Shown one piece after another: positions 2,417 through 5,921 of a stretch of DNA of 64,000 nt. This stretch comes from Alphaproteobacteria bacterium (GTDB lineage: Bacteria > Myxococcota_A > UBA796 > UBA2385). A program made the position numbers and the translations under genes. Every line of letters begins with the position of its first letter. The stretch's first letter is position 1. The notes under the pieces were generated by a model. That model did no database searches. It was not told where the DNA came from and saw nothing but the letters and a program-made list of their open reading frames with translations. The stretch lies in contig JACKEY010000009.1 of NCBI GenBank assembly GCA_020632755.1, forward strand, positions 63,332-127,331, read 5' to 3'.

Positions 2417-3924
2417 GTCTCCCCCGCCGCGGCCCGCGCCTTGGCGGCCTGCTGGCGCCACGGCAGCCGTGGGCGGTTGTCCCAGCGCGGCAGGGGCGGG
2501 CCTTCGCCGCTCCGGGCCCGCTCCGCGATCAGGTAGAGCGAGGTGTACACGGCCAGGAACTCCCAGAACGGCTTCTCGGTGATGGTGAACTCCACGAAGG
2601 ACCACGCCAGGTAGCCGAGCATGGCCGCCGGCATGGTCCAGGCCACCACCTCGGCCACCGTACCGCGCGTCGCCGCGATCAAGCGGCCCGCCATGCCGAT
2701 GATGGCGACCACCAGCCAGCCGAGCAGCACCAGCCCCGGCACGCCGTAGTGCGCGAGGAACTCCCAGAAGATGCCGTGGGGATAGTCGTACAGGCTCTGG
2801 GACAGGTAGTAGTGGTACTGGGGCAGCAGGTCGGTGTAGCCGCCGGCGCCGATGCCGCGGCCCCACGTGTCCTGGAACATCTGGACGCAGACCTCCCAGT
2901 TCCACTGCCGGTAGCTCTGCCGCAGCGTCAGGGCGTTGGTCGTGATGCGGGTCAGCGCGGCCGCGCCCGACAGGTTCGACGCAACGATGAGCACGCCGAC
3001 GGCGGCGCTGGCGGCGGCCAGGCGGATGAACCAGCGGCGGAACACCGGGTGGGCCAGCGACACGAGCATGCCGCCGATCAGCGTGGCGTAGGCGCCACCG
3101 CGCGAGCCGGACTGCAGCATCGAGTAGAAGATGAACGCCCCGGCGCCGGCCAGGGCCACCCGCAGCCAGGTCCGCCGCTCGACCAGCGCCAGCCCGAAGC
3201 AGGTCGGGATGATGAACATCAGGTTCATCGCGAACCAGTTCGGCTGCTGGCCGAGGCCGGTCTCGCGGCCACCGCCGGCCGCCGCCTGGAAGGCGTTGCC
3301 CGACACCAGCGACGAGCCATCGGTCAGCGCAGCGACCAGGCCGATGGCCACACAGGCGCCGATCCACGCCAGCACCACCCAGCGGAAGTGGGCCCACGTG
3401 CGCACGAAGGCCAGGATCACCAGCGTGTTGGCCAGCACCAGGCCGAGGGGGATGACCTCGCCCAGGGTCTCCTTGAGGGACACGCTCCACAGCACCGTCA
3501 GCGCGACCCAGCTGCAGAGCGCCAGGAAGGGGGTCTTCCACGGCCAGGCGCGCCACAGCCGCTCGCGGTGGAAGACGACGTGGAAGACCAGCGCGGCCAG
3601 GCAGAGCAGCAGCGCAGGCTCGAAGGGGCCGATGCCCATCCGGCCGATCCGGAAGAAGACCGTGGCGCCCGTGGACAGCAGCCGCGCGGCGATGAGCACG
3701 CAGACGCCCAGCAGCGGGTACTCGAGCACGGCCAGGGCCCCGGCCGTGCCGATCACGGCCGCGATGGTGACGCGGGGGTCGAAGGCGAGGGTACTGATCA
3801 GCACGAGCTCGACGACCAGCACGACGAGGAGCCAGGCGGGCCCGCCGATCCAGGAGGTCGCTCGGTGCAGGCGCTCGATCACGGGGCTCCGGAGGGCGGG
3901 GGCGGGCGCGGACCGGGAGAGCAT
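2413..3924 (-). CDS. O-antigen ligase / Wzy_C-like polytopic membrane protein
   Basis: ORF 2413..4098 trimmed to the ATG at 3924 (MLSRSAPAP...). More than 10 hydrophobic segments and a large loop with ...SMLQSGSRGGAYATLIGGMLV..., typical of O-antigen polymerase/ligase family proteins. Confidence 0.65.
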   Translation of the reverse strand: MLSRSAPAPALRSPVIERLHRATSWIGGPAWLLVVLVVELVLISTLAFDPRVTIAAVIGTAGALAVLEYPLLGVCVLIAARLLSTGATVFFRIGRMGIGPFEPALLLCLAALVFHVVFHRERLWRAWPWKTPFLALCSWVALTVLWSVSLKETLGEVIPLGLVLANTLVILAFVRTWAHFRWVVLAWIGACVAIGLVAALTDGSSLVSGNAFQAAAGGGRETGLGQQPNWFAMNLMFIIPTCFGLALVERRTWLRVALAGAGAFIFYSMLQSGSRGGAYATLIGGMLVSLAHPVFRRWFIRLAAASAAVGVLIVASNLSGAAALTRITTNALTLRQSYRQWNWEVCVQMFQDTWGRGIGAGGYTDLLPQYHYYLSQSLYDYPHGIFWEFLAHYGVPGLVLLGWLVVAIIGMAGRLIAATRGTVAEVVAWTMPAAMLGYLAWSFVEFTITEKPFWEFLAVYTSLYLIAERARSGEGPPLPRWDNRPRLPWRQQAAKARAAAGET

Positions 3925-4121
3925 AGGCCCCCGCCCGCAGCCTGTCTCGCGTCCGGATTGCGACGCCTTCGGCACCCCGGCATCCGAAGCGGCACATGCC
4001 CACGGCGGGCGCCGGTGTTGACACGCCCAGATCGAGTTGTCACACTGCCTCCGCCTGGGGTGTGTGCCCCCAGTCGGTCCGGCTCGCCGGACACTCACCG
4101 CAACCCCACGAGGAGATCCCC

Positions 4122-4310
4122 ATGAAGAAGAACCTGCTGATGCTGGCCGCCGGCGCGACCACCCTGGCCCTGGGCGCCACCACCCTCGCCGCCTGCGGCG
4201 ACAAGGATGACGACAGCGGCACCGGCGACAACGCCTGCAACGCCTGCAACGCCTGCAACGCCTGCAACGCCTGCAACGCCTGCAACGCCTGCAACGCTTG
4301 CGGTGGCTGA
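4122..4310 (+). CDS. small cysteine-repeat lipoprotein, (Asn-Ala-Cys)x8
   Basis: ATG at 4122 is preceded by AGGAGA (4111-4116). Signal peptide MKKNLLMLAAGATTLALGATTLAAC carries the lipobox LAAC. Mature part is GDKDDDSGTGD(NAC)x8GG. A strong hairpin lies downstream. Confidence 0.7.
   Translation: MKKNLLMLAAGATTLALGATTLAACGDKDDDSGTGDNACNACNACNACNACNACNACNACGG
4230..4301 (+). repeat. 9-bp tandem repeat AACGCCTGC x8 (last unit AACGCTTGC), in frame
   Basis: Read directly: seven identical units plus one single-base variant, encoding NAC x8. Confidence 0.95.
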
Positions 4311-4331
4311 GCCTTCCCGGCTCACCAGCTC

Positions 4332-4362
4332 GCGCCCCGGCGTCCTCGCGACGCCGGGGCGC
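4332..4362 (+). terminator. GC-rich hairpin (13-bp perfect stem, 5-nt loop) after the NAC-repeat gene
   Basis: GCGCCCCGGCGTC-ctcgc-GACGCCGGGGCGC, 22 nt after the stop. There is no U-tract, as is common in high-GC genomes. Confidence 0.55.
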
Positions 4363-4437
4363 GCTGCGTCTCGGGGTCCCCTCCCCAGCAGCGGTGCGCT
4401 AGACCGACTCCTCGAACGCCACCCCGGACCCTCCACC

Positions 4438-5694
4438 GTGCTCCTGCTCCTCCCCCTGCTCCTGGCCTGCGACGAGCCCGCCCAGGACCAGCACCACGCC
4501 GTCGCCCTGTCGAAGATCCCGGCCACCGTCGAGCCCGTGACCGAGAGCGAGTGGCTGCAGGACCACTGGACCTTCCCGGTGCCGGCCCAGGGGGACGCGC
4601 CGGCCGACTGGGCGCCCATCGAAGCGTCGCTGGACCCGACGGCATGCGGCACCTGCCACCCCGCGCAGTACGCCGACTGGAAGGACAGCTGGCACGCCAT
4701 CGGCATGGGCCCGGGCGTGATGGGACAGCTGGTCGACTGGGACGGCAGCGACGATCGCACGGTGCTGCAGTGCCAGCGCTGCCACGCGCCCCTGACCGAG
4801 CAGCTTCCACGCCTGAAGACCGGCCAGGACGCCGACGGCAAGGCCGTCTACGGCGACAACCCGCTCTACGTGGCCGACCTGCGCGACGACGGGCTGACCT
4901 GTGCGGGCTGCCACGTCCGCCAGCACGTGCGACACGGCCCGCCCAAGGACGGCCGCCCTGCCGACGAGACCGGCCGCGCGCTGGTCGACGGGCCGCACGA
5001 CGGCTTCGTGCCGCGGGACGAGTACCGCGACAGCAGCTTCTGCATGGACTGCCACGACTTCGAGCAGCAGCAGCTGGCGCTCAACGACAAGCTGCTGCAG
5101 GAGACCACGGCCGAGTGGGCGCGCACGTCCTACGCCGCCGACGGCGTGACCTGTCAGTCCTGCCACATGCCGGAAGGCCGCCACCTGTTCCGCGGCATCC
5201 ACGATCGCGACACGGTGCTGCAGGGCGTCGACGTCCAGGCCGCGCTCACCGAGCCCGGCAGCCTGCTGAAGCCCATCCAGGCGACGCTGACGCTGACGAA
5301 CAGCGGCACGGGCCACCGGCTGCCCACCTACACGACCCCCGAGATCAAGCTGTTCATCTGGCAGGTGGACGAAGACGGCGCCGAGCTGGCCGACACCCGG
5401 CGCGAGGGCTCGGTGGGCCGCCGGATCACGCCGAACCTGCAGAAAGAGCTCTACGACACGCGGCTCCTGCCGGGCGAGCAGAGCACCCTGCCCTATGGCG
5501 CCCGCCGTCACCTGCAGGCCCACGCGCTCGTCGCCCGGGTCGAGGTCTGGCCGGACGAGGCCTACCGCCGCTTCTATGAGATCAAGCTCAAGAAGCCGGA
5601 GAACCATCCCCGGGGCGAGGCGCAGCTGCGCGAGGCGATGCAGGCGAGCGTGGACTCGCGCTACACGCTGTGGGAGCAGACGATCCCGCTCTGA
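4438..5694 (+). CDS. multiheme c-type cytochrome (5 CxxCH), probable lipoprotein
   Basis: Five haem-binding motifs: CGTCH, CQRCH, CAGCH, CMDCH, CQSCH. Start placed at the in-frame GTG at 4438 (VLLLLPLLLAC, lipobox-like). The exact start is uncertain, and the 4207 ATG would overlap the NAC gene and the terminator. Confidence 0.7.
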   Translation: MLLLLPLLLACDEPAQDQHHAVALSKIPATVEPVTESEWLQDHWTFPVPAQGDAPADWAPIEASLDPTACGTCHPAQYADWKDSWHAIGMGPGVMGQLVDWDGSDDRTVLQCQRCHAPLTEQLPRLKTGQDADGKAVYGDNPLYVADLRDDGLTCAGCHVRQHVRHGPPKDGRPADETGRALVDGPHDGFVPRDEYRDSSFCMDCHDFEQQQLALNDKLLQETTAEWARTSYAADGVTCQSCHMPEGRHLFRGIHDRDTVLQGVDVQAALTEPGSLLKPIQATLTLTNSGTGHRLPTYTTPEIKLFIWQVDEDGAELADTRREGSVGRRITPNLQKELYDTRLLPGEQSTLPYGARRHLQAHALVARVEVWPDEAYRRFYEIKLKKPENHPRGEAQLREAMQASVDSRYTLWEQTIPL

Positions 5695-5744: not shown

Positions 5745-5921
5745 TCAGCGGCGGCGACGACGACGCTGGCGCTGGGCACCAGGGTGCTGCGGCCGGTGCA
5801 CCGGCACGGGCACGGGGACCGGCTCGGGTTCCGGGCCCCGCAGCACGTCCTCGAGCCACTCCCGCAGGCGATCGGCCAGCTCGGGCAGAGACCCTCGGTC
5901 ATGCTGCTTGCGGTCCGTCAC
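5745..5921 (-). CDS. small hypothetical protein (58 aa) with a Pro/Val repeat and a poly-Arg tail
   Basis: GTG start 5 nt after GGAGG. Sequence VTDRKQHDRGSLPELADRLREWLEDVLRGPEPEPVPVPVPV...QRRRRRR. No homology recognised. Confidence 0.25.
   Translation of the reverse strand: MTDRKQHDRGSLPELADRLREWLEDVLRGPEPEPVPVPVPVHRPQHPGAQRQRRRRRR

Follow-up and report, generated by a model that had tools for sequence, protein, structure and literature searches.

A lipoprotein of tandem Asn-Ala-Cys units co-inherited with a cysteine-free pentahaem cytochrome: a candidate thiol arm

To our knowledge, thiol chemistry outside the cytoplasm is so far known from the Dsb proteins, SoxYZ and a small number of haem enzymes with a catalytic Cys or Sec of their own. 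Here, we describe a two-gene locus in a 64,000-nucleotide stretch of a bacterial genome from activated sludge (GenBank assembly GCA_020632755.1, contig JACKEY010000009.1, positions 63,332 to 127,331; the whole stretch is called the window below). The first gene (window 4122-4310) encodes a 62-aa lipoprotein whose tail consists of eight consecutive Asn-Ala-Cys units (the NAC peptide), and the second encodes a pentahaem c-type cytochrome. Literature searches on NPCAAK/NACNAC strings, Cys-rich lipoproteins and CxxC repeats returned no description of such a peptide ('nacnac' being an unrelated chemical ligand). We found no paper describing the peptide family, which thus appears undescribed, or its pairing with a Cys-free, MccSep-like pentahaem cytochrome, which lies outside any characterized system.

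MccSep, reported in a 2026 study, is a periplasmic pentahaem selenoprotein polysulfide reductase, whose active site combines a Cys239-ligated haem 2 with the catalytic Sec325 of an Ig-like domain and in which His/Cys ligation is the catalytic state (PMC13510729). The window cytochrome resembles MccSep/ExtKL (GSU2937-2936; PDB 9wt8) in the order of its five CxxCH motifs and in its predicted fold, a five-haem cap with an Ig-like stem at the C-terminus, but it lacks both Cys239 and Sec325 and has His255; moreover, it is a lipoprotein whereas MccSep is soluble, and it is coupled to a gene for a Cys-repeat peptide, of which PMC13510729 makes no mention. With cytochrome c552 of Thermochromatium tepidum (PDB 5ZE8) it shares the two-domain build and the equivalents of His249 and His255; unlike the window cytochrome, c552 has a Cys in the loop aligned with Cys239 (…PLCQT…). 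We know of no Cys-repeat peptide associated with c552.

In the Sox system, a c-type cytochrome couples sulfur species to the tail Cys of SoxY, which ends in GGCGG. The NAC peptide, ending in …NACGG, likewise has a Cys near the C-terminus of a flexible tail and a co-inherited cytochrome, and distant relatives of the NAC module include SoxA/TsdA-type haem domains (PF21342). However, the peptide has neither sequence or fold kinship with SoxY nor an Ig-like body, but a lipid anchor and a disordered tail, in which the Cys is multiplied up to 11-fold; its partner is pentahaem and MccSep-like, and its own genome is without SoxA/TsdA. Another parallel is MrpX/YedY of Azospira, a hypochlorite-scavenging Met-rich peptide with an adjacent periplasmic enzyme proposed to regenerate it (PMC4436054). 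Both systems comprise a small exported peptide dominated by one oxidizable residue beside a periplasmic redox enzyme, but the residue here is Cys rather than Met, the enzyme is a multihaem cytochrome rather than a molybdoenzyme, and no control of the SigF type was seen. The NAC peptide also shares high Cys content and CxxC spacing with metallothioneins and CopZ-type proteins; in contrast to these, it is lipid-anchored, exported and co-inherited with a cytochrome, has single-Cys family members and matches none of their families.

The NAC peptide gene and its conservation

The product reads MKKNLLMLAAGATTLALGATTLAAC-GDKDDDSGTGD-(NAC)x8-GG. Its N-terminus (MKKNLL…TTLAAC) has the charged n-region, the hydrophobic h-region and the L-A-A-C lipobox of a lipoprotein signal, and by these gene features the product is a lipoprotein of the signal peptidase II (SPase II) type, with predicted acylation. 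An earlier note on this DNA had reported a ribosome-binding site (RBS), an SPase II signal, an acidic linker, eight NAC units and a GG-stop, all of which were found (Table 1), and its count of nine cysteines among about 38 mature residues agrees with the sequence (9 Cys in 38 residues). Tandem Repeats Finder placed the repeat at 4229-4301 (period 9, 8.1 copies, 98% matches, score 139), making it the top-scoring short-period array within the 64-kb window; seven of the eight units are AACGCCTGC and one is AACGCTTGC. Searched against Pfam and NCBIfam, the peptide hit no family at E <= 0.1, and metallothionein, HMA and other metal-binding profiles in these databases gave no match. The SoxY family profile did not match either, the mature part being 38 low-complexity residues.

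The earlier note had asked whether related genomes keep the frame and the lipobox, and had named repeats in other frames, stops inside the repeat or an unconserved start as observations that would speak against the gene. None of these was seen in orthologous loci. Frame, start, RBS (GAGGAG/GAGAGGA-type) and lipobox recur in all orthologous loci with enough upstream sequence, frame and lipobox are conserved across a single Myxococcota-like order, in more than 20 species-level loci, and copy number differs among them. The orthologues share one build, namely a signal peptide, the lipobox Cys, usually 'GDKD', an acidic stretch and then (N/D)AC units; all 17 family members that were aligned have the lipobox Cys, and most have 'GDKD' right after it. 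By these sequence comparisons, the open reading frame (ORF) is a real conserved gene, beyond what chance would give.

The number of units is 3 in two genomes (G004 and G015), 5 in G034, 8 in G018, 9 in G014, 10 in G007 and 11 in G028, where Asn and Asp alternate. Protein databases contain further members with 2 or 3 units, as well as variants whose early units are ADN, AEN or AGN, and position X of the X-N-A repeat alternates between Cys, Asp, Glu and Gly (ADNADNAGNADN…, AENAENAC…). Across the family, the tail has 0 to 11 cysteines, and the clustered Cys typical of a metallothionein are accordingly not conserved. Orthologous tails end in CG[GSA], CGAA, CGT, CAE, CNAG or CVEV, or in CDGG..(A/S) where the cytochrome contains a PDZ domain (see below), and most members have their final Cys 1-4 residues from the C-terminus. 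One genus has the peptide gene in 2-3 tandem copies ahead of a single cytochrome gene. A profile of the 17 members matched 21 cluster representatives among 1.84 billion; by this measure the family is small. ORFs of 40-60 aa and low complexity, such as that of the NAC peptide, are easily dropped by gene callers. Among the relatives, P0024 has a tail rich in His, Asp and Glu; the contigs of P0024 and of the Asn-Pro-Cys (NPC) lipoprotein P0025 are too short to show a partner.

Within its own genome (5.4 Mb, 73% G+C, 82% complete) the NAC peptide gene is unique. A second candidate, an 'RRC' array on contig C13 of the same genome, was rejected as an off-frame reading of a DDT-repeat lipoprotein. 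That lipoprotein (G000:C13:98408-99124, minus strand) has a (DDT)n/(DGT)n tail from a 9-bp repeat and is similar in style but unrelated to the NAC gene. In the NAC gene itself, the part for the signal peptide includes a separate 21-bp tandem duplication (window 4143-4202; LAAGATT / LALGATT / LAAC…), which makes the signal peptide about 4-5 residues longer than in orthologues.

A co-inherited, cysteine-free cytochrome

The earlier note had seen a redox context in the neighbouring pentahaem cytochrome, and gene content across the order bears this out. In a set of 41 relatives, the genomes with tandem NAC arrays are exactly the 10 that have an orthologue of the cytochrome. Order-wide (154 species genomes), 23 genomes have at least three tandem units and 22 of these hold a cytochrome orthologue, the sole exception (G104) having a DAC array. 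Where contigs permit the comparison, the two genes lie side by side in one orientation. Genomes lacking the pair keep the order Gate / 370-aa protein / Wzy_C / GT-C / M23, with an intergenic gap at the pair's place; this retained synteny indicates that the peptide and cytochrome genes form a two-gene accessory cassette. Judged by this distribution, the cytochrome is a co-inherited partner of the peptide, not a chance neighbour.

The cytochrome itself was compared with known families by sequence, profile and predicted structure. It matched the NCBIfam model NF040886 (ExtKL) at 2e-16, with 59.5 bits falling below the curated cut-off of 250. A profile built from 55 homologues matched c552 (5ze8, 8e-19) and MccSep (9wt8, 2.4e-16) among PDB sequences, and the protein is colinear with the MccSep of the PDB, with a common GH(S/R)(I/L)P motif. 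An AlphaFold2 model made with the 55-sequence alignment (predicted local distance difference test score, pLDDT, 92.9) has a helical haem domain and a C-terminal beta-sandwich; with a 10-sequence alignment the haem domain was poor (pLDDT 59.5). The top Foldseek match of the model was 5ze8 (E 8.7e-14, template modelling score 0.54-0.58). MccSep, which the Foldseek PDB library used (to April 2026) appears not to contain, was not among the matches, so the kinship with it comes from sequence and profile comparison only.

At the active-site positions of MccSep, the family differs throughout. The Cys239 position is occupied by Gln/Glu or a neighbouring Leu, in a K-L-L-(Q/E)-(E/N)-T loop without Cys in all 55 sequences, and the Sec325 position by Thr/Val in an invariant P-T-Y-x-T-P (GHRLPTYTTPE aligns to GHSIPDGUPTP). 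Apart from two isolated exceptions, the 55-member alignment contains no free Cys beyond the N-terminal lipobox. Outside the motifs, five His residues (H86, H187, H249, H255 and H293) are invariant or almost so; His255 among them has no counterpart in MccSep, where Arg is found. These alignments make the cytochrome a third, Cys- and Sec-free branch of the MccSep/c552 superfamily.

A question raised by this pairing is whether the tail of the peptide varies together with its partner. Within family f7, the tail has four cysteines in G127, two in G129, one in G116 and G136/G132, and none in G027 and G123. The single-Cys tails ('…ADNADNACNAG' in G116, '…GNACVEV' in G136/G132) stand beside cytochromes with all five haems, His255 and PTYTTP. 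The Cys-less tails ('…DSATDSAADSAADAA' in G027, '…SGANAEDAA' in G123) stand beside cytochromes that lack precisely the haem-2 CxxCH region, with His255 changed to Asn or Tyr and the PTYTTP loop to PSAAGP or PTTAGP. From this paired loss we infer that the haem-2 pocket needs the Cys of the arm, and His255 appears linked to haem 2, for which it is probably the distal ligand. That one tail Cys suffices speaks against a core function in metallothionein-type chelation or in a CxxC disulfide that must form within the molecule; in sequence terms, it fits a carrier or swinging-arm thiol.

A second co-variation involves the C-terminus. Three metagenomic orthologues of the cytochrome (L136:1474-2583, L140:1388-3064 and L141:2529-4094) contain a PDZ domain (PF13180, 6.8e-10), inserted between the haem-4 motif and the 'GKMLQETTEEW' loop that aligns with the Cys239 loop of MccSep. 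Upstream of each lies a gene for a NAC lipoprotein whose C-terminus is lengthened by an acidic stretch (CDGGEDGGEDGS, CDGGDDTDA and CDGGSDSGA); no locus without the PDZ domain has such a stretch. PDZ domains typically bind C-terminal peptides, and this pairing is the most direct hint that the cytochrome may hold the C-terminus of the peptide at the mouth of the former active site.

Array dynamics, transcription and the wider family

Unit identity in the window genome is in itself a poor guide to the history of the array. In nine neighbouring genes, AAC, TGC and GCC make up 100%, 91% and 60% of their codon sets, and codon bias alone would yield seven identical units of eight at P ~0.1; thus, the identity, which goes only slightly past the expectation from this bias, is weak evidence of recent slippage, and repeat perfection was rejected as proof of it. 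Among other genomes, G042 and G058 have runs of identical units with the rare Ala codons GCT/GCA, and two assemblies break inside the array (G011:C3:156965-157018 with G011:C104:2-55, and G039:C133:226-324 with G039:C23:53-97), where the contig ends are pure AACGCCTGC units and the true copy number is probably above 10. Together with the spread of 0-11 units, these observations indicate that the array grows and shrinks in frame over evolutionary time, which means length variation and not on/off phase variation. The earlier note was therefore right that copy number can change without a frame break, as seen in the different Cys numbers of species and in the tandem gene copies of one genus. In metagenome unitigs (runs X1-X3; window 4229-4267), a 34-39-nt repeat unitig reached 9-12x the flank depth, against ~4x expected for eight units, and unitigs break inside the array. 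The excess may reflect either a repeat common to other sludge organisms or an array that is longer or variable in the population.

The hairpin that follows the peptide gene consists of the stem arms GCGCCCCGGCGTC (4332-4344) and GACGCCGGGGCGC (4350-4362) with the loop CTCGC, and the first 75 nt 3' of the stop fold at -45.5 kcal/mol (z = -4.2 versus shuffles). GC hairpins of 10-14 bp, 10-45 nt past the stop, were found in 12 of 12 folded sequences (~10 distinct species-level loci); their position is conserved and their sequences are unrelated between loci. Most are without a U-tract, and a strict terminator scanner made no call at the window hairpin. The earlier note had taken the gene for its own transcription unit. 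The hairpin part of this claim holds, but a separate unit is uncertain given the mostly missing U-tract, and the joint gain and loss of both genes makes an attenuator or messenger RNA stabilizer a better fit than a full stop. A hairpin in this position would yield an excess of peptide over enzyme. No second TTGACA box was seen in the 75 nt from the hairpin to the cytochrome start. Upstream of the peptide gene, a perfect TTGACA box lies ~100-130 nt away in 8 of 10 orthologous loci; in the window, the -10 hexamer CACACT matches the consensus at 3 of 6 positions, and a strict promoter scanner made no call. Hairpins in the 5' untranslated region (5'-UTR) also occur upstream of orthologues, at a similar position and with different sequence. 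An Rfam search of 3800-4500 returned only sX13, below threshold (17.7 bits versus a gathering score of 50).

More widely, matching stretches of GTDB species genomes yielded at least 353 tblastn-confirmed relatives of the cytochrome, many of them from sulfur- and iron-oxidizing bacteria and wastewater organisms. A different Cys-repeat product lies within 4 kb in ~21 of 57 family loci, compared with 0 of 23 control loci (non-family multihaem cytochromes). These NPC products adjoin cytochrome homologues of 31-43% identity in Proteobacteria and other Myxococcota, usually directly upstream (Betaproteobacteria, Accumulibacter, Bradyrhizobium, Magnetospirillum, Mariprofundus and other Myxococcota). 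They are either small secreted (A)NPCAAK / CNPC peptides or SoxA/TsdA-type monohaem domains (PF21342, 1.5e-8) with NPC tails, and some relatives of the NPC type are rich in Met and His, e.g., MNPCNPCAMKHKM of Mariprofundus. The NPC peptides, on which we found no publication, thus resemble the NAC peptide as secreted, low-complexity N-x-C arms directly upstream of the same cytochrome family, and the window locus too has an N-x-C arm next to a Cys-free pentahaem family member. The NAC unit differs in being a tripeptide of period 3 (CxxC) instead of a hexapeptide, in being lipid-anchored, in occurring in one order only and in lacking an accompanying SoxA/TsdA-like haem protein. A maximum-likelihood tree puts the NAC-linked cytochromes together in a single clade (support 100/97), which falls within a set of NPC-linked and unlinked clades, and bridging peptides exist, namely P0025, a lipoprotein with AADNPCNPC units, and P0032, with mixed NPC/NAC. 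As judged from these sequences, the element common to both arms is N-x-C.

Table 1 Coordinates of the features discussed (window positions unless a locus is given)
Feature	Position	Strand	Basis or remark
Putative promoter: TTGACA 4018-4023, 17-nt spacer, CACACT 4041-4046	4018..4046	+	~100 nt 5' of ATG; inferred
Small 5'-UTR hairpin, GTCCGG-CTCG-CCGGAC	4077..4092	+	Read from sequence
Ribosome-binding site GAGGAG	4110..4115	+	6 nt ahead of ATG 4122
Signal peptide MKKNLLMLAAGATTLALGATTLAA and lipobox Cys	4122..4196	+	+1 Cys codon 4194-4196
Acidic linker GDKDDDSGTGD	4197..4229	+	Sequence
Asn-Ala-Cys x8, 9-bp tandem repeat (cysteine arm)	4230..4301	+	Sequence, Tandem Repeats Finder
Gly-Gly C-terminus and stop	4302..4310	+	Stop codon 4308-4310
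13-bp GC stem-loop between peptide and cytochrome genes (attenuator, terminator or stabilizer)	4332..4362	+	Sequence, folding
Pentahaem c-type cytochrome lipoprotein, MccSep / c552 (5ZE8) superfamily	4438..5694	+	Lipobox LLLAC, five CxxCH
NPC products	L053:3586-3846; L056; L057:2726-3646, 3795-3954; L089:3522-3806; L082; L058		Beside cytochrome homologues

Several further observations concern the surroundings of the two genes and their relatives. The GT-C-like gene downstream (PMT_2, 9e-4) belongs to the core of the order (35 of 41 genomes, including cassette-less ones), and the upstream Wzy_C is kept in the cassette-less genomes examined; a functional link of the pair to GT-C-like or glycosylation genes was rejected, since GT-C is present without the cassette. 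Just upstream of the GT-C gene, on the minus strand (window 5745-5921), lies a 58-aa micro-ORF (…LREWLEDVL…PVPVPVPV…RRRRRR) without a Pfam match. It is conserved in relatives, cassette-less ones included (L115-L118, …W(L/M)D.L.P.P.PVPVPVPV…RRRR), and minus-strand genes of 56-71 aa are called at its place in L031, L140 and L141. In G008 (L118:3819-3920), a genome without a cytochrome orthologue, a truncated Cys-less lipopeptide (MTARILLLLAAVMSLSLAACGDKDDDTAAEMSN) lies between Wzy_C and GT-C. In G140, G131 and G134 (L126, L131 and L133), all of one genus, the cytochrome gene directly follows tsf (EF-Ts) and its product has a membrane-anchor-like N-terminus in place of the lipobox; the matches in G131 and G134 each fall into two pieces, perhaps through a frameshift. 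In Candidatus Poribacteria (L045-L048 and L051), the pentahaem module is the C-terminal part of an ~850-aa 11-haem protein, and no Cys-repeat ORF occurs within 4 kb of it.

Possible functions of the thiol arm

Co-inheritance and the haem-2 co-variation favour the redox-active tether among the suggestions of the earlier note. We consider the chances about even that the tethered thiol arm is a redox partner, as substrate or co-substrate, of the pentahaem cytochrome. After Sec export and SPase II processing, the acylated Cys would sit in the membrane, followed by the acidic spacer and a flexible, disordered NAC tail ending a few residues before the C-terminus, and both proteins would be on the same membrane face. 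The tail would then dock in the haem-2 pocket, where its thiol(s) would exchange electrons with the haem chain, using a thiol/disulfide, persulfide or sulfenate couple. A Cys offered in trans would thereby do the work that MccSep, TsdA and SoxAX/SoxY do with protein-bound Cys, and extra NAC units would give a multivalent arm whose unit number drifts by in-frame repeat gain and loss. The cargo may be sulfane sulfur, a disulfide, an adduct of an oxidant or a metal; analogy with the MccSep superfamily and with the SoxA/TsdA relatives suggests sulfane-sulfur or S-S chemistry. A more specific and rather unlikely version is a 'split' MccSep-type sulfur reductase. In that version, the enzyme would have given up its chalcogens, and the lipid-anchored, multivalent arm would supply the thiol in trans and capture sulfane sulfur or other thiol-reactive species at the membrane surface; the loaded Cys would be reduced in the haem-2 pocket, with the PDZ domain docking the C-terminus of the arm in some lineages.

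A number of points weigh against a redox partnership between arm and cytochrome. Its basis is computational throughout, and the function is inferential. Cytochrome orthologues without a peptide gene exist (G140, G131, G134, G065 and two 'Fibrobacteres' sister sequences), and conversely P0003, a peptide of the NAC/ADN type, does not adjoin a cytochrome. The two Cys-less loci (G027 and G123) belong to one family and may represent a single evolutionary event or a paralogous pair, and the PDZ co-variation comes from three related metagenomic contigs. The SoxA/TsdA haem domain (PF21342) is absent from the window's own genome (82% complete). All five haems may be bis-His, leaving no open thiolate site, a view that the loss of His255 together with haem 2 also fits; thiolate ligation would need His255 displaced, the chemistry being otherwise outer-sphere. 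In that case, the cytochrome could be a mere electron wire with outer-sphere thiol chemistry. Finally, some units have Asp, Glu or Gly in the place of Cys (ADN/AEN/AGN) and P0024 has an acidic, His-rich tail, features that resemble metal ligation.

Such substitutions, along with the CxxC periodicity, the nine cysteines in 38 residues and the Met/His-rich NPC relatives, would suit a metal- or metalloid-binding lipoprotein (metallothionein- or CopZ-like), whose thiolates and Asp/Glu chelate Cu(I), Zn, Cd, Hg, As or Fe at the membrane, the cytochrome being a metal reductase or an unrelated neighbour. However, single-Cys members keep an intact cytochrome although a lone thiolate cannot chelate, no metallothionein, HMA or other metal-binding family matched, the conserved neighbourhood contains no metal efflux, resistance or sensor genes, and both co-variations (PDZ with C-terminus, haem 2 with Cys) point to protein-protein contact. 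We regard metal binding as unlikely, and the metallothionein-like reading in the earlier note is weakened, because single-Cys tails beside intact cytochromes mean that neither CxxC nor many thiolates are a conserved requirement. A special case of the redox partnership is a sacrificial, MrpX-like thiol buffer in the periplasm, in which oxidants or electrophiles oxidize the Cys and the cytochrome re-reduces it, with induction under stress as its prediction. The analogous build of a small secreted peptide of oxidizable residues beside a periplasmic redox enzyme, the hairpin after the peptide gene (which fits peptide excess) and the oxic habitat of activated sludge all agree with it; yet a buffer should have many Cys while single-Cys members persist, and the upstream TTGACA is of the housekeeping type, not the SigF/extracytoplasmic-function type of the MrpX promoter. 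A dedicated buffer thus seems decidedly unlikely.

Co-inheritance, the loss of Cys with haem 2 and the PDZ insert matched to the peptide C-terminus could also be read as signs of a stable small subunit that does not turn over as a substrate: the tail Cys would be a permanent axial ligand of haem 2 or a covalent attachment, or the peptide would anchor or chaperone the cytochrome. In the related MccSep, His/Cys ligation is indeed catalytic. This is more doubtful still, since one Cys would be enough and arrays of 8-11 units and 2-3 tandem peptide genes per cytochrome gene are left unexplained, the cytochrome has a lipobox of its own and needs no anchor, and the invariant His255 probably ligates haem 2 already. 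Very improbable, in our view, is a modified peptide, either the precursor of a ribosomally synthesized and post-translationally modified peptide (RiPP; radical S-adenosylmethionine (radical-SAM), thioether or thiazole chemistry on Cys) or a glycosylation substrate of GT-C/Wzy_C through its N-x-C sequon. The former would be in keeping with a small, Cys-rich ORF that is repetitive and, in some genomes, present in tandem copies, and the latter with the GT-C-like and Wzy_C genes on either side. Neither the window nor the homologous loci contain a maturase, cyclodehydratase, radical-SAM or peptidase/exporter gene, and the N-terminus is a Sec/lipoprotein signal instead of a leader peptide; the Cys-directed maturase substrate suggested in the earlier note, which had proposed a check for neighbouring radical-SAM genes, is thus unsupported. 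As for glycosylation, GT-C and Wzy_C persist without the cassette, and the related NPC arms put Pro at the forbidden position of the sequon.

If the redox partnership is true, a separate, tethered Cys arm serving a Cys-free cytochrome would be a new way of coupling respiratory electrons to protein thiols, and the pairing would give a function to a widespread, uncharacterized cytochrome family. The natural variants, with 0, 1, 2 and up to 11 Cys or with a PDZ domain, together with the assays of the MccSep study, make an unusually tractable test system. Should the split-reductase version be true, then it and the NPC arms of other phyla would together define a new class of systems in the periplasm, in which multihaem cytochromes power carrier thiols.

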